Positions 25,664-34,829 of a DNA stretch of 64,000 nt are shown piece by piece (the stretch's first letter is position 1; every line of letters starts with the position of its first letter). The stretch covers positions 2,560,001 through 2,624,000 of the forward strand of contig CBDBCY010000004.1 of assembly GCA_965203555.1 (NCBI GenBank), read 5' to 3'. Source of the stretch: Acidimicrobiia bacterium (GTDB lineage: Bacteria > Actinomycetota > Acidimicrobiia > Spongiisociales > ZC4RG35). The notes under the pieces are model-generated. The model was not told the DNA's origin and did not search any database. It was given only the letters and a program-made list of their open reading frames with translations. The position numbers and the translations under genes are program-made.

Positions 25664-27157
25664 CTATTTCCGCCAGACGGAAGGGACGAACAGCACCAGG
25701 ATGGGCAGTATCTCCAGCCTTCCCACGATCATCAGCAGAGAAAGAAGCCATTTGCCGGGTGCGGACACCGCCGCGTAATTGGCCGTGGGGCCCACTTCGC
25801 CCAGTCCCGGCCCGATGTTTCCCAGGCTGGCCACCACCGCCGATACGGATGTGACCAGATCCGAGGACCCGAAGGCCATCTCTACGGTGGTGAACACCAC
25901 CATCCCCGCGCACAGGAGGAAGACGTACAGGGCGAAGAACGAGAAAATTCCCCTGATCATGTTGATGGTCAGGGGTCGGCGGTCGAGTCGTATCAGGAAC
26001 ATTCCCTTGGGGTGGATAACGCTGCGCAATTCGGTGAAAGCCGTGTTGACCAGCACTTTGAGTCGGAAGCTCTTTATGCCCCCGGCGGTGGATCCCGCCA
26101 TCCCCCCCAGGGTCATCAGAATGAGCAGCAGGACCTGTAGTGGGGGCACCCACAGTCCGAAGTCGGCGGTGCTGTACCCGGTAGTAGTCACCATCGACAC
26201 GGCGGTGAAGGTTCCGTCCCTCACGGCCTGTTCCCATTCGGTACCCTGGTTGGCAAGGGCGATCGCCAGCCATGCCGCCGCGGCCAGCACCACCACGAGA
26301 TAGACCCTGAATTCTTCCTGCCGCAGATACTCGGTGGGACGCAGCAGCGCCCGGTAGTGGAGAGAGAAGGAGATGCCGGCCAGAGTCATGAAGATGATGA
26401 TCACCCATTGGGTATAGGCGCCGAATTCGGCGATGGAGGTGGCTTCGGTGCCGAATCCCCCGGTGGACATGGTGGTGAGAGAGTGATTGACAGCCTGAAA
26501 GAGGTTCATGTCGCCCGCCCACAGCAGCAACAGGACTTCCAGGCAGGTCAGCATGACGTACACCATCCACAGGCGCTTGGCGGTGTCCTGGAATCGGGGA
26601 GTGAGGCGATCGGGATTGGCGCCGGGAGACTCGGCCCGGGCCAGTTCCACTCCGCCCACTCCCAGCAGCGGAAGGACGGCGACGAACATCACGATGATGC
26701 CCATTCCTCCCAGCCATTGGGTCAGGGACCGCCAGAAAAGTATGCCGTGGGCCATCTGACCGGGATCTGCCAACAGGGACGCGCCGGTGGTCGTGAAACC
26801 CGAAACTGTCTCGAAAAAAGCGTCGGTCACATTGGGAATAGCGCCGGTGAACAGGTAGGGGAGAGTCCCAAAGGCCGACATCATCAGCCAGGCGATACCC
26901 ACTCCCGCGAATCCTGCCCGGGTGGTCAAAGTGCTGGGCGTCTCCACCGACCACCACAGCAGTCCTCCTACGGACGCAGTTATTGCGGCGGCGGCGCTGA
27001 TTGCCCTGGCATCGGAGAATTCGCTGTAGAGCATGCAGACGCCTGCGGCAACGAACATCATCAGACCCACCGCCAGAAGGGTGACTCCGGTGACCAGCAG
27101 AAGGGAGGCCAGCATTCCACGGCGACCCAGCCAGCCCACCGCCGCGGTCAATCTCAC
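25664..27157 (-). CDS. trkH: Trk potassium uptake membrane protein
   Basis: FFETVSGFTTTG, WLGGMG, STGGF, TTTGY, GSTAGGIK, LGNIGPG, GRLE. Confidence 0.96.
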   Translation of the reverse strand: MRLTAAVGWLGRRGMLASLLLVTGVTLLAVGLMMFVAAGVCMLYSEFSDARAISAAAAITASVGGLLWWSVETPSTLTTRAGFAGVGIAWLMMSAFGTLPYLFTGAIPNVTDAFFETVSGFTTTGASLLADPGQMAHGILFWRSLTQWLGGMGIIVMFVAVLPLLGVGGVELARAESPGANPDRLTPRFQDTAKRLWMVYVMLTCLEVLLLLWAGDMNLFQAVNHSLTTMSTGGFGTEATSIAEFGAYTQWVIIIFMTLAGISFSLHYRALLRPTEYLRQEEFRVYLVVVLAAAAWLAIALANQGTEWEQAVRDGTFTAVSMVTTTGYSTADFGLWVPPLQVLLLILMTLGGMAGSTAGGIKSFRLKVLVNTAFTELRSVIHPKGMFLIRLDRRPLTINMIRGIFSFFALYVFLLCAGMVVFTTVEMAFGSSDLVTSVSAVVASLGNIGPGLGEVGPTANYAAVSAPGKWLLSLLMIVGRLEILPILVLFVPSVWRK

Positions 27158-28503
27158 GTATCTTCTCCGTAAAAGAGATTCTCGATCTCGGTTATGTGAT
27201 CGGGGAGCGTGAACACGACAATCCGATCCCTGGGCCGGATGACGGTGTCTCCGCGAGGCAGGATGGGAGTCATTCTCCGGACGATTCCCCCCACTATCGA
27301 ACCTTTGGGGATATTGATGTCCATCAGCCGGCAGCCTGCCGCAGGACTGTCCTGCGCCACATCCAATTCGATTGCCTCGGCATCGGAGTCGCTGAAAGTG
27401 ACGACCGAGTGCACCACCCCTCGACGGACATATCTGAGGATGGTGCTGGCGGCCAGCAGTCGAGGGGAAACGGCGCCATCGATTCCGCGCCCCTCCAGCA
27501 GGCCCACATAGTGGGGATTGGTGAGATTGGCCACTGCCATCGGGACTCCCAACGCCTTTCCCACCAGGCAGACCAGGGTGTTGGCGCCGTCTTCCTCGGA
27601 GAGCGCCAGCAGGGCATCCCGTTCTCCCAGATCCAGTCCCCCCAAGGTATCGGGATCGGCCGGGTCGTCACAGATCGCCAAGACCTTGGGATCGGCGTCG
27701 GCCACGGACCGGCAGAACATGTGGTCGTCACTGATGAACACCACCGAAAGCCATGCCTCCCGCATTTTGCGAATCGCCACTCTCGCCAGCCGGGAGTCAC
27801 CGGTTATCACCACCCGGTTGGCCAGGCGGGTTCTTATCCCCAGCAATTTGGCGGCGAACCGCACGTCGCGGGGCGTCACCATCATCAGGACGTGGTCGCC
27901 GGCCTGAATCTCGGTGGCGCTCTTGGCGACCATGGTGTCCCCGTCTCTGATGATTGCCACCACCAGAAAGTCCCGTTTCTTGTAAACGGCTGCCACCTGT
28001 CGCATAGGCCTGCCCAGAAGGGGAGAATCCGGTTGGGCGATGCCGCCCACCAGAATCAATCTCCCGCCGGCGAACTCCCAATGTTCCGACATGCCGCTCA
28101 GTCGCACCAGTCTCACCAGTTCGTCGCCGGTGGCCTCATCGGGGTCTATCACCACCTTCACCCCCATGTTGCGGAGTCCCGATCGCAGACTCGAGTCGGA
28201 GATCCGGGCCACTGTTTGCCTGATCCCCAGGTTGGTGGCCGAGTGGCAGGCCAGGGCATTCACTCCGTCCTGGTCGGTGACCGCGATCAGCAGATCCACC
28301 GGGTCTCCGACAGCCATTATGGCCTTCTTGAGCACTCCCTGGCTGGCGCCGTTGCCGATGATGGACAACACGTCCAACTGGGAGTTGAGAGTGTCAGATA
28401 GTTGTGGGTCTCTTTCGACGATTACAACGTTCTGGCCGTCGGATGAGAAACGCTCGGCCAAGTAGCTGCCGACCGCTCCGGCCCCCACGATAATGATCTT
28501 CAT
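27154..28503 (-). CDS. trkA: Trk potassium uptake regulatory subunit (two RCK domains)
   Basis: MKIIIVGAGAVG, AVTDQDGVN, PRGDTVI..DRIVVF; coupled to trkH. Confidence 0.93.
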   Translation of the reverse strand: MKIIIVGAGAVGSYLAERFSSDGQNVVIVERDPQLSDTLNSQLDVLSIIGNGASQGVLKKAIMAVGDPVDLLIAVTDQDGVNALACHSATNLGIRQTVARISDSSLRSGLRNMGVKVVIDPDEATGDELVRLVRLSGMSEHWEFAGGRLILVGGIAQPDSPLLGRPMRQVAAVYKKRDFLVVAIIRDGDTMVAKSATEIQAGDHVLMMVTPRDVRFAAKLLGIRTRLANRVVITGDSRLARVAIRKMREAWLSVVFISDDHMFCRSVADADPKVLAICDDPADPDTLGGLDLGERDALLALSEEDGANTLVCLVGKALGVPMAVANLTNPHYVGLLEGRGIDGAVSPRLLAASTILRYVRRGVVHSVVTFSDSDAEAIELDVAQDSPAAGCRLMDINIPKGSIVGGIVRRMTPILPRGDTVIRPRDRIVVFTLPDHITEIENLFYGEDT

Positions 28504-28616
28504 TGCTATTGATCCCAAGAATACCGAGATGGCGGAGGGGACAATCGGTCGCAATTGTTGTGAACCGTCGGCCCAGTTGTAAACTCGGTGACTCCTCGTC
28601 ACAGGGGGAGACCCCC

Positions 28617-29480
28617 ATTCCTGATCCACTCGAATCTGCACAGAAAATAGCTGCCGCCCTGGCAAACCAGGGTTACCTGGCCTCCGAGCGGATCTCCCAG
28701 GTCGTGTATCTGGCCGGCCGCCTGAACAAGCCGGTGCTGGCGGAAGGCCCCGCCGGGGTGGGAAAGACCGAATTGGCCAAGGCCGTGGCCGCCGCCACCG
28801 GTCGGAAGTTGGTGCGACTGCAGTGCTACGAGGGACTGGACGAATCCAAGGCGCTCTACGAGTGGAACTATCGAAAGCAGTTGCTGCGCATCTCTGCCGA
28901 CCCTTCATCGCAGTGGAGCCAGATGGAAGAAGACATATTCTCCGAGGGCTTCTTGCTGTCGCGCCCCCTGTTGACGGCTATCTCCTCGTCAGATCCGGTG
29001 GTGCTTTTGGTCGACGAACTGGACCGGGTCGAGATGGAGACCGAGGCTTTGCTGTTGGAAGTTCTGTCGGAGTTCCAGATCACTATCCCCGAGTTGGGCA
29101 CGGTCCGGGCCGGGTCCCAGCCCCTGGTGATCCTGACTTCCAACAACACCCGCGAACTATCCGAAGCGCTTCGGCGTCGCTGCCTGTTCCTGCACATTCC
29201 CTACCCCAGTCCCGAGCGAGAGAAGGCTATCCTGCTTGCCCGGTGCCCGGACCTTCCCGATGCCCTGGCGTCCTCGATCGCCCAGGTTGCCCGCAGCCTG
29301 CGTGGTATGGCTCTCAAGAAACCTCCCTCGGTATCCGAGACCATCGACTGGGCCAGGACGCTTTTGACCTTGGGAGTCGAGAGGATCGACCGAGAATTCT
29401 TCTCGGATACAGCCCACGTTCTACTCAAGTATCAGGCCGATATCGAACTGGCCTGCAAGGAACTTGCTGCGGGAGAGTGA
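28617..29480 (+). CDS. MoxR-family AAA+ ATPase (CoxD-like)
   Basis: EGPAGVGKTELAK, RLQCYEGLDESKALYEWNY, LLVDELDR, TSNNTRELSEALRRRC; start uncertain (ATT 28617 after a strong SD, or GTG 28560). Confidence 0.92.
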   Translation: MPDPLESAQKIAAALANQGYLASERISQVVYLAGRLNKPVLAEGPAGVGKTELAKAVAAATGRKLVRLQCYEGLDESKALYEWNYRKQLLRISADPSSQWSQMEEDIFSEGFLLSRPLLTAISSSDPVVLLVDELDRVEMETEALLLEVLSEFQITIPELGTVRAGSQPLVILTSNNTRELSEALRRRCLFLHIPYPSPEREKAILLARCPDLPDALASSIAQVARSLRGMALKKPPSVSETIDWARTLLTLGVERIDREFFSDTAHVLLKYQADIELACKELAAGE

Positions 29481-29486
29481 GAGTCG

Positions 29487-30953
29487 GTGCTGAGTCTCCT
29501 CACCGACTTCGTGGAGGAACTGCGCACCGCGGGAGTCCCCGTGTCAATGGTGGAAACCATCGACGCCATGGAGGCGGTGCCGATGATCGATCTGGCGGAC
29601 CGTTCGGCCCTGAAGACGGCATTGAGCGCCACAATGGTGAAATCCGCCCGACATCTGGAGGCGTTCGACACCGCCTTCGAGGTGTTCTTCGCTTCCGACC
29701 GTCCTCCACCCCCGGACGAACAGGAATCTCCTCCCCCGACCATGCCGTCGGAGGGTTCTTCGCAGGGGGGATCGGCGGGTGGATCCGGATCGCTGGCTGA
29801 GGCTTTGGCCGCGGCGCTGGGCAGCCAGGACTGGGGGGCTCTGAGCCGCCTGGTGAAACAGGCGGTGGAAGAGTTGGCCGGCATGACATCGGGACGGCCG
29901 GTGGGAGGCGCCTATTACTTGTATCGCACCCTGCGGCGCCTGGACCTCGACATGATGAGAGAGATGCTGGTGCAGATGATGGAAATGCAGGGGTCCCATC
30001 CCGGCTTGAATGAGGGGGCGCTGGCGGATCGTCTCCGCGCCGAAGAGATCGATGACCTGATGGAAAGGTTGAGAAGGGAGTTGATGGCGGAGATCCGTCG
30101 TCGTCTGGTTGCCGACCGGGGGAGACAGCCCGTGGCTGCCACTCTGAGGACCCCGCCGCTCGAAGAGGTCGATCTCATGCACGCTTCGGAATCACAACTG
30201 CGCCGGATCGAAAAGTTGATAGGACCGCTCACCCGCAAGTTGGCCGCACGGTTGGCCCGCCGCGACTTGCACCGTTACCAGGGCCGTCTGGACTTCCGCC
30301 GTACCCTTCGGGCTTCTCTTGGTTCCGGTGGCGTGCCGCTGGACCTTCGCTTTCGCGCCAAGCGGAGATTCCGTCCGGAGATCTTCCTGCTGTGCGATGT
30401 CTCTGGTTCCATGGCGACCTTTGCCCGCTTCACTCTTCAGTTCACCTACGCCATGTCGGCTCGGTTCTCCGGATTGCGGGCATTTGCCTTCGTGGACGGT
30501 GTTGATGAAATCACCCAACTCCTGTCGCCCGGTCTGCGTTTTGGGGTGGTGGCCCAGCGAATCTTCGCGGAAGCCGAGGTGGTGGAACTGGACGGCCATT
30601 CCGACTATGGGAACGCGTTGTCCCGGTTTTGGGATCGCTACGGGGGCGAACTGACTGCCCGGTCCACGGTGATCATCGCCGGGGACGCCCGTAACAACTA
30701 CAGGGACTTTGATGACGAGGCGCTTGCCGGGGCGGCGAACACCGCCGAGGCGATCTACTGGCTGAATCCCGAGCCTCGAGCCTATTGGAACACCGGAGAC
30801 TCCCTGATGTCCAGGATGGGGGCGTATTGCACCGAGGTGTACGAGGTGAGGAATCTCTCCCAGTTGGAAGGCTTTGTCGGCAAGCTCGCCGACCACCGTC
30901 GCAAGCCACCCGCTCGGTGGGTCAACCGGCCAGTTGCGCCAAGCGTTCGATAA
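29487..30953 (+). CDS. VWA-domain CoxE-like protein
   Basis: FVEELRTAGVPVS, LDFRRTLRASL, MIDAS CDVSGSM, GHSDYG, GDARNNY, WLNPE. Confidence 0.92.
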   Translation: MLSLLTDFVEELRTAGVPVSMVETIDAMEAVPMIDLADRSALKTALSATMVKSARHLEAFDTAFEVFFASDRPPPPDEQESPPPTMPSEGSSQGGSAGGSGSLAEALAAALGSQDWGALSRLVKQAVEELAGMTSGRPVGGAYYLYRTLRRLDLDMMREMLVQMMEMQGSHPGLNEGALADRLRAEEIDDLMERLRRELMAEIRRRLVADRGRQPVAATLRTPPLEEVDLMHASESQLRRIEKLIGPLTRKLAARLARRDLHRYQGRLDFRRTLRASLGSGGVPLDLRFRAKRRFRPEIFLLCDVSGSMATFARFTLQFTYAMSARFSGLRAFAFVDGVDEITQLLSPGLRFGVVAQRIFAEAEVVELDGHSDYGNALSRFWDRYGGELTARSTVIIAGDARNNYRDFDDEALAGAANTAEAIYWLNPEPRAYWNTGDSLMSRMGAYCTEVYEVRNLSQLEGFVGKLADHRRKPPARWVNRPVAPSVR

Positions 30954-31935
30954 GGTCGACCACCCGATTCGAGTATCCCCACTCGTTGTCGTACCAGGCC
31001 AGGACCTTTACCAGGTTGGAACCCAGCACCTCGGTACCCCCGGCGTCGAACACGCTGGAATGGGGATTGCCGATTATGTCGGAGGAAACCACCGGCGCCT
31101 CGGTGTATTCGACTATTCCGCGATAGGGACCCGCCGCTTCCTCCCGGACTGTTTCGTTGATTTCCTCGACGGTGACTTCCTCGGACAGTTCCACCACCAG
31201 GTCCACAATGGAGCCGTCGGCCACAGGTACCCGCATCGCCATTCCGTCGAGCTTTCCCTCCAACGCGGGAATGACCTTGCCCACCGCTTTGGCCGCTCCG
31301 GTGGTGGTGGGGATGATGTTCTCGGTGGCCGCCCGGCTGCGCCGCAGGTCTCGGTGGGGAACGTCGGCGAGTCGCTGATCATTGGTGTAGGCGTGAACGG
31401 TGGTCATCAGTCCCCGCTTGATTCGGTAGTGGTCATTGAGGATCTTGGCAATGGGGGCTAGGCAGTTGGTGGTGCAGGAGGCGTTGGAAACGAGGGCGGC
31501 ATCCGGTCCCAGCAGGTGATCGTTCACTCCCAGGACCACGGTCAGGTCCAGGGGATCTTTGGGAGGTACCGTGAGAACCACCCGCTTGGCCCCGGCCTCC
31601 AGGTGCCTGGTCAGGGCCTCACGGGTTCGAAAGACCCCGGTGGACTCCACCACCACGTCGACCCCGAGTTCGGTCCACGGCAGTCTGGCCGGATCGCGTT
31701 CGCACAGCATGTGGATCCGATAACCGCCCACCGCCATTACTCCGGCTGACAGGTTGACTTCTTCCTCCAAGGGCCCCATCACCGAGTCGTAGCGCAACAG
31801 ATAGGCCAACACGTCGTCGTCGGCAAGGTCGTTGACGGCCACCACCTCCAGGTCGGGGAGAGGGCGCTCGATCAGGATGCGCAGCACCGACCGCCCGATC
31901 CTGCCGAACCCGTTGATGGCCACTCTGAATTTCAT
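30922..31935 (-). CDS. gap: Type I glyceraldehyde-3-phosphate dehydrogenase (catalytically intact)
   Basis: INGFGRIGR, SNASCTTNCLAP, TTVHAYT, PTTTGAAKA, AMRVP, WYDNEWGYS. Confidence 0.97.
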   Translation of the reverse strand: MKFRVAINGFGRIGRSVLRILIERPLPDLEVVAVNDLADDDVLAYLLRYDSVMGPLEEEVNLSAGVMAVGGYRIHMLCERDPARLPWTELGVDVVVESTGVFRTREALTRHLEAGAKRVVLTVPPKDPLDLTVVLGVNDHLLGPDAALVSNASCTTNCLAPIAKILNDHYRIKRGLMTTVHAYTNDQRLADVPHRDLRRSRAATENIIPTTTGAAKAVGKVIPALEGKLDGMAMRVPVADGSIVDLVVELSEEVTVEEINETVREEAAGPYRGIVEYTEAPVVSSDIIGNPHSSVFDAGGTEVLGSNLVKVLAWYDNEWGYSNRVVDLIERLAQLAG

Positions 31936-32939
31936 GAGCCGCTCATCCTCTCCAGTACCTCCACGATGCGCTCCGAATACCCCCAACCGTTGTTGTACCA
32001 GGTCACCGTCTTGGCCAGGTGGTCGCCGATAACCATGGTGGCCAGGCTGTCAAACACCGCCGATACTGAGGCGCCGGTTACGTCGGAAGAGACGATGGGA
32101 TCGGTGGTGTACTCGACGATTCCCCGGTAGCGGGTCTCACAGGCCTGGTGGACAGCCAGGTTCACTTGATCGACATCCACCGGGGTCTCCAATTCGGCCA
32201 CCAGATCGACGGTTGAACCGTCCACCACCGGGACATTGAGGGCCAGCGAACCCAGTTTCCCTGCGAATTCGGGTCGGGCGGCCACCAGTATCTCCACGGT
32301 GTTGGTGGGCGAGGGAATGATGTTGTCCGCCGCGGCCCGGCTGGAACGAAATCCGGAGGTCGGCACATCCGCCAGGCGCTGAGCGTTGGTCATGGCATGG
32401 ACGCTGGTGAAAAAGCCCCGCTGCAATCCGAAGTTGTCGGCCAGGGTCCAAAGAATGGGCGCCAGCGCGTTGGATGTGTTGGAACCAAGGGAGATCACCT
32501 GCGTGTCGGGCTCAAGGAGATGGTCGTTCACTCCTCGCAAGAGAATCGGGATCTCACCCGGAACCTGGGGCGTTGAGGCCAGGACGACGCCCCGGGCGCC
32601 GGCGGCGATGTGGCGACGGCACTCTTGCATGGTGTGATGGCGTCCGGTGGATTGCACGACCAGTGACACGCCCAGGTCACGCCAGTCCGCATCTCCGGCG
32701 TCACGGGCAGCGATTAGGGGCGTGGACTTTTCACCAACCAATAGGGCGCCGTCCTGGTAGGTGACCGGTTCGGGAAACCTGCCATAGATGGAGTCATAGC
32801 GCAGCAGATAGGCCAAACCCACCGGGTCGGCCACATCCGCAACGGCGCCCACTTCCAGGGAGGGATGGCCTCTCAACAACCGAAAGACATTGCGACCCAC
32901 TCTGCCGAAGCCCATCAGAGCCACTTTGGTTTTTTGCAA
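31932..32939 (-). CDS. GAPDH paralog lacking the catalytic Cys (putative pseudoenzyme)
   Basis: Full-length and collinear with gap (GFGRVGR, YDS, QRLADVP, WYNNGWGYS), but SLGSNTSNALAP replaces SNASCTTNCLAP and ALNVP replaces AMRVP. Confidence 0.9.
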   Translation of the reverse strand: MQKTKVALMGFGRVGRNVFRLLRGHPSLEVGAVADVADPVGLAYLLRYDSIYGRFPEPVTYQDGALLVGEKSTPLIAARDAGDADWRDLGVSLVVQSTGRHHTMQECRRHIAAGARGVVLASTPQVPGEIPILLRGVNDHLLEPDTQVISLGSNTSNALAPILWTLADNFGLQRGFFTSVHAMTNAQRLADVPTSGFRSSRAAADNIIPSPTNTVEILVAARPEFAGKLGSLALNVPVVDGSTVDLVAELETPVDVDQVNLAVHQACETRYRGIVEYTTDPIVSSDVTGASVSAVFDSLATMVIGDHLAKTVTWYNNGWGYSERIVEVLERMSGS

Positions 32940-33079
32940 CGATTTCCCTCCGCCGGGTGTCTCCTGCCCTCAGAAAATTACCACATCCCGTTCAAATATC
33001 ACCATCGAAATCTTTCGCGGTCCGGCAGGAAACCGCCGTGACGCTTGAATCTCGCAAACGCGCCTTGCATCCTGAAGGG

Positions 33080-33619
33080 GTGAGGGCATTTCGGTACGAG
33101 ACCGTTGGAAGACGAGCGGCATGGTTGCTGCTCATGTTGGTGGCGCTTCCTGCCCCGGCTCGCACGGAGACCGACTGCCGACCGGCGCTCAGGCCACCGG
33201 TGCCGGGGATGATCCTTCGATCTTTCGCTCCAGCCGATCGCGGAGGCCATTGGGGAGTGGACCTGGCGTCGTCGGAGGCGGCGGTGGTGCGGGCGCCGGT
33301 ATCGGGCAGGGTGACCTACGCCGGAAGTGTCGCCGGAATCCGATCAGTGACCGTCGCTCCCCTGCCGGAGGTGAGAGTGAGCATCTCCTATCTATCGGAA
33401 ATATGGGTGACGCGCGGGCAGCGGTTGAAAGTCGGCCAGCCCCTGGGACGGTCGGGCATCGATCACGGAATCTCCGCCGTACATCTCTCGTTACGGGTAA
33501 AGGGTCGGTATCAGGATCCCCGCCCTGCTCTGAACTGCGGACCAGGACCCGGACCGAACGGAGGGCGCCTGAAGCTTCTTCCCCACGGATCGGGCGCCCA
33601 CCCGCGTGTGGATCACTGA
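33080..33619 (+). CDS. Secreted M23-family peptidase-like protein
   Basis: Signal peptide, GHWGVDL (HxxxD), VRAPVSGRVTYAG, VHLSLR..YQDP; start inferred. Confidence 0.8.
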   Translation: MRAFRYETVGRRAAWLLLMLVALPAPARTETDCRPALRPPVPGMILRSFAPADRGGHWGVDLASSEAAVVRAPVSGRVTYAGSVAGIRSVTVAPLPEVRVSISYLSEIWVTRGQRLKVGQPLGRSGIDHGISAVHLSLRVKGRYQDPRPALNCGPGPGPNGGRLKLLPHGSGAHPRVDH

Positions 33620-33644: not shown

Positions 33645-34238
33645 ATGAGCCGGGCTAAGGTAGCAAATGTGAGGAGAGCATTGTTGGGTGGCACCTTCGA
33701 TCCCCCCCACCTGGCTCATCTGGTGTTGGCGGAAGCCGCCCATTGCCAACTCGGGGTCTCGGCGGTGGAATTCATACCGACCGGAAACCCGTGGTGGAAG
33801 TTACAGCCGCCTCCTTCCGCAGCACATCACCGGTTGGAGATGATCAGACGGGCTACGGCGGGTATTCCCTATTGGAAGGTCAACGATTGCGAGGTGCGCC
33901 GGGACGGTCCCAGCTACATGGCGGACACCTTACAGACCTTCGACTCCCGAGATGAGGTCTATCTGGTGCTGGGCGCCGACGCGGCCATCGGAATCCGCGA
34001 GTGGATGCGTTGGAGGGAAGTTGTCGAACGGGTCCGCCTAGTGGTGGCCGCGCGGCCGGGAACCGATCTGCAGCGGGTCGAGCAGGCGGTCGGACACTCA
34101 CCTACCTGGCTGGAGATCCCCCGGCTGGACATTAGCTCCGAGCAGATCAGGCGCCTGTGCCGGGCAGGTCAAAGCATCCGGTTTCTGGTTCCGGAACCGG
34201 TCCTGGAATACATCGCCGAAAACCGGCTCTACTCCTGA
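33645..34238 (+). CDS. nadD: Nicotinate-nucleotide adenylyltransferase
   Basis: GGTFDPPHLAH, GPSY, LGAD, ISSEQIR. Confidence 0.96.
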   Translation: MSRAKVANVRRALLGGTFDPPHLAHLVLAEAAHCQLGVSAVEFIPTGNPWWKLQPPPSAAHHRLEMIRRATAGIPYWKVNDCEVRRDGPSYMADTLQTFDSRDEVYLVLGADAAIGIREWMRWREVVERVRLVVAARPGTDLQRVEQAVGHSPTWLEIPRLDISSEQIRRLCRAGQSIRFLVPEPVLEYIAENRLYS

Positions 34239-34242
34239 GGGG

Positions 34243-34668
34243 ATGGCTTATGATGAGGATCACATTCGATCACCAGGGGGTGGTTTAGTAGAGACTCTGG
34301 AAGCTACTCGGCTCGCAGCCGACGTTTTGGCGGAGAAGAACGCCTCTGACATCGTGTTGCTGCAGGTGGGAGAGGCGATGGGCATCACCGAGGTGTTCGT
34401 GATCGCCACCGGTCGTTCCCGGCCCCACATCCAAAGCCTCGCCGAGGAGCTGAAGATCCGTTTTGGGGAGCACGGACGGCAGCGTTTCGGGGAGGAAGGG
34501 TTGGCGCAGTCCGAGTGGGTGTTGCTGGATTACGGTGATTTCATCGTGCACATCTTCTCTCCCGAGCATCGTCTCTACTACGGACTGGAACGTCTGTGGG
34601 GTGACGCGCCCCAGGTTCCCTGGACCCGGCCCGCCGCCCAAACCGCATCCGAGCTCAAATCGGCCTGA
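34243..34668 (+). CDS. rsfS: Ribosome silencing factor
   Basis: FVIATG, WVLLDYGDFIVHIF..YYGLERLWGD; follows nadD. Confidence 0.96.
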   Translation: MAYDEDHIRSPGGGLVETLEATRLAADVLAEKNASDIVLLQVGEAMGITEVFVIATGRSRPHIQSLAEELKIRFGEHGRQRFGEEGLAQSEWVLLDYGDFIVHIFSPEHRLYYGLERLWGDAPQVPWTRPAAQTASELKSA

Positions 34669-34687: not shown

Positions 34688-34761
34688 GGGGCTGTAGCTC
34701 AGCTTGGAAGAGCGCTTGCATGGCATGCAAGAGGTCACGGGTTCAAGTCCCGTCAGCTCCA
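34688..34761 (+). tRNA. tRNA-Ala(GGC)
   Basis: GGGGCTGTAGCTCAG..CTTGC AT GGC AT GCAAG..GGTTCAAGTCC..CAGCTCCA; G3:U70 pair. Confidence 0.95.
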
Positions 34762-34829
34762 CAGAAATAGGCCCATCTATCTGGTATCAATTGTTGGGTT
34801 GCTACCCAAATTCCAGCGGCCCTCAGCCC

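Follow-up and report, generated by a model that had tools for sequence, protein, structure and literature searches.

A GAPDH paralog without the catalytic cysteine, encoded directly upstream of gap in Acidimicrobiia, as a probable non-catalytic partner of the active enzyme

Glyceraldehyde-3-phosphate dehydrogenase (GAPDH) ranks among the best-studied enzymes, and its homotetramer, its cooperativity and its redox-sensitive cysteine are textbook material. In the chloroplasts of land plants, GAPDH occurs as an A2B2 enzyme in which both subunits are catalytic and GapB carries a C-terminal regulatory extension. We analyzed a stretch of 64,000 nucleotides from an Acidimicrobiia genome (assembly GCA_965203555.1, contig CBDBCY010000004.1, positions 2,560,001 to 2,624,000; hereafter the window), in which two full-length GAPDH genes lie in tandem: an upstream gene, here called A, without the catalytic cysteine, and a downstream gene, Cp, for a canonical GAPDH (Gap). 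As with GapA and GapB, two GAPDH paralogs are here proposed to share one heterotetramer in which one of them serves regulation. In contrast to GapB, however, A is predicted to be dead and, with 335 aa against the 337 aa of Cp, carries no extension; the two genes form an overlapping bacterial operon.

The accessible text of two sources describes trypanosomatid prozymes, which are dead paralogs that form an active complex with AdoMetDC or PRMT1 (PMC6221367; bioRxiv 10.1101/776112). Like a prozyme, A is a paralog without catalytic residues that is under purifying selection beside an active sister, and a heteromer is proposed. As presented in those sources, prozymes differ from A in belonging to other enzyme families and to eukaryotes and in having no operon coupling; their complex and activation are experimental, whereas A is known from sequence. 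Another comparable protein is TbGAPDHL, a GAPDH-like paraflagellar-rod protein of trypanosomes, which the accessible part of its description gives as predicted inactive, with a cofactor (adenosine) site that may serve ligand binding (PMC4106842). A resembles it in being a GAPDH homolog predicted to be catalytically inactive, in which the nucleotide site may be kept. However, TbGAPDHL as described there is cytoskeletal and eukaryotic, is neither encoded beside an active GAPDH nor proposed as a partner of one, and is much less conserved, whereas A is bacterial, strongly conserved and coupled to gap. Epd and the ArsJ-associated GAPDH are, like A, GAPDH-family paralogs with altered phosphate sites, but both keep the catalytic Cys (for Epd, according to the accessible text of PMC12041015), and A lacks Cys149. 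In its accessible portion, a 2025 review of the GapDH superfamily uses the word 'pseudoenzyme' only for ALDH16. Full-text literature searches, which reached few subscription journals, found no description of a bacterial Cys-less GAPDH partner, and the preliminary description of this DNA likewise knew of no such bacterial system. What appears to be new is a dead GAPDH paralog coupled to gap in bacteria; a dead paralog retained beside an active sister is known.

Residue losses and kept features of the upstream paralog

The features of the two genes are given below in window coordinates, with residues of A set against the canonical GAPDH positions to which they align.

31932..32939, minus strand: gene A, GAPDH paralog without catalytic residues (open reading frame and translation, 335 aa)
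32937-32939 and 31932-31934, minus strand: start codon TTG and stop codon TGA of A
30922..31935, minus strand: gene Cp, canonical type I GAPDH, 337 aa from ATG (passes TIGR01534)
31933-31935 and 30922-30924, minus strand: start codon ATG and stop codon TGA of Cp
31932..31935, minus strand: ATGA stop/start overlap of A and Cp (translational coupling), read directly
32946..32951, minus strand: GGAGGG, Shine-Dalgarno-like motif 6 nt 5' of the TTG of A (putative function, from sequence only)
32478..32480, minus strand: Asn154, codon AAC, at the nucleophile Cys149 (alignment; Asn in 75/75 orthologs)
32343..32345, minus strand: Ser199, codon TCC, at Arg195 of the Ps site (aligned with R199 of Cp)
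32235..32237, minus strand: Asn235, codon AAT, at Arg231 of the Ps site (Asn in 74/75 orthologs)
31986..31988, minus strand: Gly318, codon GGT, at Glu314 (Gly in 75/75 orthologs)

We regard A as a pseudoenzyme, that is, a GAPDH paralog predicted to be no longer able to oxidise glyceraldehyde-3-phosphate. The gene adjoins Cp directly upstream on the same strand, and its stop codon overlaps the start codon of Cp. Both the ATGA junction between two GAPDH homologs and the intact 335-aa upstream frame, which the preliminary description had reported, were read in the sequence as same-strand open reading frames of 335 and 337 aa.

Alignment of A with Cp gave 48% identity (159/334; E 5e-104), colinear over 334 columns. 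The Pfam domains Gp_dh_N and Gp_dh_C were present in both proteins, with scores of 87.6 and 143.3 bits in A. Being full-length and colinear, with both Pfam domains and a predicted GAPDH fold, A is like the type I GAPDH (GapA; TIGR01534; EC 1.2.1.12). It is unlike that enzyme in scoring below the curated cut-off of TIGR01534 (288.1 bits against 367.2, which Cp passed with 438), in lacking Cys149, Arg195, Arg231, Gly209 and Glu314, and in belonging to a separate clade (100/100). Cp keeps S-C-T-T-N-C, His181, R-R-S-R, Arg235 and Glu318. A also scored below the models of Epd (NF010058, 231.5 against 539; TIGR01532, 221.6 against 530.55) and of the ArsJ-associated GAPDH (NF033735, 239.3 against 450). 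Epd was rejected as the identity of A on these scores, which lie far under the cut-offs, and on the missing Cys at position 149; an ArsJ-linked GAPDH was rejected on the NF033735 score, the missing Cys149 and the lack of an arsJ-like neighbour. A search of the ESM Atlas returned generic GAPDH clusters only. In the PDB sequence search, the best 60 of 140 matches were all named GAPDH and several were engineered active-site or cofactor mutants, with no natural Cys-less relative among these 60.

According to the accessible text of two sources, Cys149 and His176 form the catalytic dyad, the substrate-phosphate (Ps) site consists of Thr179, Arg195, Arg231 and an NAD ribose hydroxyl, and the Pi site consists of Ser148, Thr208 and the backbone of residues 208-210 (bioRxiv 10.1101/2022.05.03.490436; PMC12041015). 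The accessible part of the first source also describes Cys149 as redox-sensitive (bioRxiv 10.1101/2022.05.03.490436). Each of the three sites is incomplete in A. The dyad has lost its Cys, with His181 present; the Ps site keeps Thr184 and has lost Arg195 and Arg231; the Pi site keeps Ser153 and Thr212 (positions 148 and 208), with Gly209 and Ala210 replaced by Asn213 and Thr214. Also kept are Thr150, His176 (His181), Thr179 (Thr184), and Arg194 and Arg197, the outer arginines of R-R-x-R, of which the middle one is lost. Because Cys149, Arg195, Arg231 and Glu314 are all missing, A cannot carry out the thioester mechanism. The changes of the nucleophile Cys to Asn (AAC, 32478-32480) and of a substrate-phosphate Arg to Asn (AAT, 32235-32237, at Arg231), both pointed out in the preliminary description, recur in 75/75 and 74/75 orthologs; the losses of Arg195 and Glu314 are additions to its list. 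Its account of the Pi site was correct for the segment, in which P-T-N-T-V-E-I stands for T-T-G-A-A-K-A, but Thr208 is kept and Gly209 is the residue lost.

The features around the nucleotide were kept. A has G-F-G-R-V-G-R, Asp32 (Asp35), Asn313 (Asn317), Tyr317 and W-Y-N-N-G-W-G-Y-S, and its S-loop is very like that of Cp. The Rossmann motif is complete (GxGxxG, Asp32 and Asn313), and NAD binding by A is a prediction. The retained elements named earlier (GFGRVGR, the His, the S-loop and WYxNxWGYS) are all in A, although the His carries less weight than had been assumed, with Lys in its place in 28/75 orthologs. Asp32, Leu187 and Pro188 presumably set cofactor specificity. The same three residues are those mutated in PDB entry 1dbv, according to its title. 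The number 195 for the middle arginine column is our assignment, by a numbering that we take to skip one position after Pro188; the labels Asn6, Asn31, Arg77 and Ser119 are likewise putative.

Arg231 and Glu314 were each found in 107/107 other canonical GAPDHs. Among 50 members of the non-canonical clade to which A belongs, Arg231 was found in none, and the position of Glu314 was Gly in 46, Ser in two, Gln in one and Ala in one. No Cys was invariant in the 25-sequence family alignment.

Linkage, conservation and history of the gene pair

For a very long time A has been retained in a coupled cassette of two genes, of which it is the first and an active GAPDH gene the second. A scan of one genome per species gave at least 584 confirmed relatives, and the best 80 loci were analyzed; almost all were metagenome-assembled genomes (MAGs) labelled Acidimicrobiia, the nearest named one being a Candidatus Spongiisociaceae MAG (69%). 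At 78 of the 80 loci A immediately preceded a canonical gap in the same orientation, and the other two contigs ended just after A. The 77 junctions measured (the window and 76 loci) comprised 61 4-bp ATGA or GTGA overlaps, one 1-bp overlap and 15 spacers of 1-3 bp, and the gap between A and Cp never exceeded 3 bp (77/77). Wherever the sequence allowed a check, A was never apart from a partner-type gap. The overlap and spacing of the genes place A and the active Gap always on the same message, in tight translational coupling. The preliminary description had proposed a search for Cys-less GAPDH genes adjacent to gap in other genomes, and a dead copy immediately before a canonical gap was found at 78/80 species-genome loci and at 74/80 metagenome loci.

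The metagenome loci came from a contig scan with the most distant sister subfamily, which gave 80 loci 44-75% identical to their own query. In 74 of them a gene without Arg231 was followed directly by a gene compatible with canonical GAPDH, and 61 of these downstream genes read C-H-R-R-E at five checked sites. Of the remaining six, five were on contigs ending 264 nt or less after the first gene, and one contig began inside the pair. Residue 149 of the first gene in the 74 pairs was Ser in 65, Thr in four, Cys in three, and Ala and Ile in one each. No other flanking gene family was common to the Acidimicrobiia loci and the sister-subfamily loci, and the two-gene cassette is therefore the conserved unit.

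The distribution of the pair was surveyed in 121 genomes sampled evenly across Acidimicrobiia. Two adjacent same-strand GAPDH matches were present in 46/121, namely 14/14 genomes of the family of the window, 5/5 and 1/5 of two other families of its order, and 26/27 of a genus with genomes of about 1 Mb, where the dead copy was upstream in the 3/3 pairs examined. The remaining sampled genomes had canonical-type matches only. A search of the flanks (about 1 kb) of 14 solo Acidimicrobiia gap genes gave no remnant of A.

The sequence of A is itself strongly conserved. A word-indexed protein search gave 4044 proteins at E <=0.001 among 8000 candidates scored. The best 120 of the 4044 were 57-99% identical to A, closer than A is to Cp, and had Asn149 in 120/120 and Asn231 in 119/120. 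Residues were counted in 75 complete A/Cp pairs from the best 80 species-genome loci. The A orthologs had Asn149 in 75, Gly314 in 75, Asn231 in 74, Asn209 in 70, Ser148 in 75, Thr150 in 74, and Arg194 and Arg197 in 75; the recurrence of Asn149, Gly314 and Asn231 shows that these substitutions in A are not due to chance. Arg was absent from position 195 in all 75, which had Thr (40), Ser (15), Gln (12), Met (3), Ala (3) or Leu (2). Asp32 and Tyr317 were present in 75/75 and Asn313 in 72/75, and His176 was Lys in 28/75, with the His kept in A of the window. In the Cp orthologs all seven checked catalytic residues were present in 75/75.

The ratio of non-synonymous to synonymous substitution rates (dN/dS) was calculated by the Nei-Gojobori method, and only the closest pairs were relied on. 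In these, dN/dS of A was about 0.05-0.17, similar to that of Cp. The values for A and Cp were 0.105 and 0.087 between the window and locus L004, 0.106 and 0.140 for L005-L006, 0.049 and 0.065 for L044-L050, and 0.111 and 0.031 for L038-L039. Overall, the number of non-synonymous changes in A was about 1.9 times that in Cp. Most of the 2775 possible pairs were saturated at synonymous sites, and the median omega of the 1984 'unsaturated' ones (0.31 for A and 0.17 for Cp) was not relied on. A is a conserved gene under purifying selection and not a relic. A Cys-less copy unique to this genome, with dN/dS near 1, which the preliminary description had set against its own proposal, is clearly not what was found, given 120 homologs with Asn149 and dN/dS of about 0.05-0.17.

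An all-against-all search of representative proteins gave 14106 proteins at E <=0.001. Among the best 150 listed there were further GAPDH-like clusters without Arg231, in which position 149 was Ser, Val, Ala, Pro, Gly or Cys. The named members of this wider clade were records labelled Acidobacteriota, Planctomycetota or 'bacterium' and one Tara marine sample. In the 50 non-canonical members, the Gly residues of GxGxxG were present in 50/50, position 32 was Asp in 46 and Glu in four, and Asn313 was present in 45/50. The nucleotide-binding motif and the S-loop were the best-kept parts of the protein.

A tree of 86 rows was made with IQ-TREE (LG+C20+F+G4 by posterior mean site frequency, PMSF; 200 bootstrap trees; unrooted). 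A branch with 100/100 support separated all 28 non-canonical rows from the other rows, and one with 100/98 support did the same for the whole set of 39 solo or other canonical GAPDHs. Between these two sets the 18 partner Gaps formed a grade; they were a single group in 0/200 bootstrap trees. In a quick tree, the main groups were the same in the non-canonical half and in the partner half, which is consistent with the two genes having diverged together. At four positions within or shortly behind the S-loop (A190, V192, S200 and E205 in Cp numbering) the state of Cp was present in 90-100% of the partner Gaps and in 62-88% of the non-canonical clade, and in only 3-13% of the 107 other GAPDHs. Common descent could account for these shared states, as could co-evolution at the tetramer core or gene conversion between the tandem paralogs. 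Members that keep Cys149 were scattered and basal, with at least three changes between Cys and non-Cys among the 28 rows. The pattern points to a loss of Arg231 and Glu314 before that of the Cys, which would then have become dispensable and been lost several times. As a bolder possibility, the duplication may be so old that some 'solo' GAPDHs stem from ancestors that carried the pair and later lost its dead member.

Predicted assembly and alternative readings

From the gene arrangement and the shared history of the two genes, we consider it probable that A is a non-catalytic subunit, probably still able to bind NAD(H), that co-assembles with Gap. A and Cp would be synthesized at a constant ratio from one mRNA and would join in a mixed oligomer of the GAPDH type, in the simplest case an A2Cp2 tetramer. 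Catalysis in such an oligomer would be carried out by the Cp subunits only, and the A subunits would supply tetramer interfaces, S-loops and probably a nucleotide (NAD(H)) site. A would be a structural or allosteric partner of Cp. The preliminary description had suggested that such a subunit may serve as an NAD(H)/redox sensor, tune glycolytic versus gluconeogenic flux or have a moonlighting function.

The AlphaFold2 (AF2) model of the A monomer had a predicted local distance difference test score (pLDDT) of 79.5 and a GAPDH fold, with Foldseek template modelling (TM) scores of 0.84-0.85 to 1nq5, 3zcx and 1hdg. For the predicted A-Cp heterodimer, the interface score from aligned errors (ipSAE) had a median of 0.59 (0.59, 0.59 and 0.72), and the best of three controls scored 0.00. 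The partner had a pLDDT of at least 91, and the runs agreed in at least 99% of contacts. In a calibration, the ipSAE mark was reached by 58/80 solved complexes and by 2/110 mismatched pairs; scores of 0.60 or less included only 7/80 solved complexes together with both passing mismatches, these counts being rough, with own alignments used. The predicted heterodimer weakly supports binding of A to Cp.

Several observations weigh against a mixed oligomer. The pair is present in only 46/121 genomes of the class, and GAPDH therefore clearly works without A. A fused A-Cp protein was not found in the search for longer proteins, which gave one match, a canonical GAPDH-PGK fusion, and the long representatives had either Cys-bearing units only or an A-type unit with an N-terminal over-extension; this is weak evidence. 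In the monomer model, pLDDT fell below 50 in the S-loop and in two further segments; the S-loop is ordered by tetramer contacts, and its low confidence is therefore expected. The heterodimer score may only recall GAPDH homo-oligomers, because those are solved. Two positions that are Asn in 100/107 and 102/107 canonical GAPDHs, which we take to be Asn6 and Asn31, are Met and Ala in A, and both of these near-invariant residues beside the nucleotide loop are lost across the whole non-canonical clade, so that NAD binding may be altered. FastTree (LG+G) places the non-canonical clade elsewhere, with a monophyly support of only 0.246, and groups the partner Gaps as a clade of their own (0.975) within the canonical GAPDHs. 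The history read from the trees therefore depends on the model; we gave more weight to the site-heterogeneous IQ-TREE analysis, and the disagreement with FastTree stands. Finally, the replacement residues are near-invariant in the Acidimicrobiia family (N149 75/75, N231 74/75, G314 75/75 and N209 70/75), as would also be expected of a remodelled ligand or active site, and this reading is therefore the main rival.

According to this rival, A would be an independent NAD(P)-dependent enzyme or ligand-binding protein that forms its own homo-oligomer and is co-transcribed with gap for related metabolites. Its remodelled pocket would contain Asn149, Asn209 and Asn231, with Thr179, Arg194 and Arg197 kept. 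The invariance of the pocket residues in the Acidimicrobiia orthologs, the kept dinucleotide-binding motif with Asp32, and a dN/dS as low as that of a working enzyme are all in its favour. However, residue 149 takes eight states (Ala, Cys, Gly, Asn, Pro, Ser, Thr and Val) in the 28 non-canonical rows, with at least ten changes on the tree, and Val, Pro, Gly and Ala are found there in a clade with the same gene arrangement. Gly209 is Trp in 14/50 and Asn in 19/50 members of the clade, and His176 is Lys in 28/75 orthologs. These three observations speak against a novel catalytic chemistry. The residue at the place of Arg195 varies as well, no common catalytic constellation survives, and there is no common replacement chemistry across the clade. 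Metabolic co-transcription also leaves unexplained why all 77 junctions are overlaps or spacers of 3 bp or less and why the partner-type gap is constant. We regard an independent function of this kind as unlikely.

A binding of A to Gap that is not stoichiometric, in which A would regulate transiently, help in assembly or act as a decoy, appears somewhat less likely again. Gap dimers might, for example, be capped or sequestered by A, or be shielded by it during oxidative stress, since A has no oxidisable Cys149. The evidence of linkage and shared history that favours a fixed subunit serves this reading equally well, as does the loss from A of a residue given as redox-sensitive in the accessible part of its source (bioRxiv 10.1101/2022.05.03.490436). 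The overlap coupling, on the other hand, suggests near-equimolar synthesis, and A, which is 335 aa long and colinear with Cp in 334 columns, has no extra domain or tail that would hint at a regulatory module. That A is a functionless duplicate in decay, or an artefact of assembly or annotation, is so improbable that it was ruled out: A does fail the curated GAPDH cut-off and lacks catalytic residues, but it has an intact 335-codon frame with a Shine-Dalgarno-like motif, at least 584 relatives in species genomes, 120 examined homologs, low dN/dS (0.05-0.17 in close pairs) and the same substitutions in 75/75 (N149 and G314) or 74/75 (N231) orthologs.

Genomic surroundings and meaning of the pair

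In the 3.4-Mb, 95%-complete genome the Gp_dh_C cut-off was passed at only two loci, A and Cp, and Cp is therefore taken as the only GAPDH of the genome. As the preliminary description had noted, the locus lacks the usual pgk and tpi, which lie together on the same contig about 2.1 Mb from the pair. The neighbours on both sides are unrelated to the pair. Downstream there is a convergent pair of genes for a MoxR-type AAA ATPase and a VWA/CoxE-like protein (plus strand), and there is a TrkH/TrkA potassium-uptake pair (minus strand), all within window positions 25664-30953; the plus-strand pair ends at 30953 and thereby shares about 30 bases, in convergent orientation, with the 3' end of gap (30922). 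Upstream and divergent are an M23 peptidase gene, a nadD-like gene and rsfS. A scan of 30600-33300 for promoters and terminators was uninformative (no promoter-like site; two terminator-like sites, with 1.8 expected). No RNA data set was listed as containing window positions 30800-33100; three data sets of unspecified kind that contain them came from a single study, and the three RNA runs on the list had next to none of the sampled words.

The nadD-like cytidylyltransferase gene (NAD biosynthesis) and rsfS occupy window positions 33645-34668 on the plus strand, and a tRNA-Ala gene (anticodon GGC; 34688-34762, plus strand) lies directly 3' of rsfS. The nadD-like family was found upstream in 50 and the rsfS-like family in 45 of the Acidimicrobiia loci, and in 0 of the sister-subfamily metagenome loci; this neighbourhood is probably plain synteny.

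A few records in the searches were unusual in other ways. Eight pair-bearing loci (L019, L023, L026, L029, L032, L033, L039 and L066) are labelled as Gammaproteobacteria or as Acidobacteriota/Acidobacteria MAGs, and these off-class labels may reflect mislabelled bins or transferred cassettes. Four genomes of another Acidimicrobiia family, of about 4-5 Mb (G014, G055, G063 and G067), had two canonical-type GAPDH matches that were far apart or on different contigs, unlike the tandem pair of dead and active copies. Two long proteins contained several GAPDH units: P0124 (2089 aa) has four together with a PGK domain in one polypeptide, and P0159 (1455 aa) has two together with HEAT repeats. A pattern search found four S-C-T-T-N-type motifs in P0124 and two in P0159, all with the Cys; both are putative gene models.

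GAPDH is known for half-of-the-sites behaviour. We suggest, tentatively and with less confidence than for co-assembly itself, that in a scattered set of bacteria GAPDH may be an obligate hetero-oligomer of catalytic and dead NAD(H)-binding subunits, in which this behaviour would be hard-wired and the dead subunit would set the response to NAD+/NADH or to oxidative stress. The set would include part of the Acidimicrobiia, among them the genus with genomes of about 1 Mb, the relatives labelled Acidobacteriota or Planctomycetota, and marine metagenomes.

In public sources, those dead copies that have a name are called 'glyceraldehyde 3-phosphate dehydrogenase' or 'type I GAPDH', and genome-based metabolic models therefore count an isoenzyme that almost certainly is none; the carriers are many uncultured bacteria. 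If A is a subunit as proposed, a conserved, operon-coupled non-catalytic subunit would give a core enzyme of glycolysis a new quaternary form. The pair would then be a natural system for studying why oligomeric enzymes keep 'silent' sites, and a clean bacterial case of how heteromers of paralogs give rise to pseudoenzymes, be it through dependency or through constructive neutral evolution.

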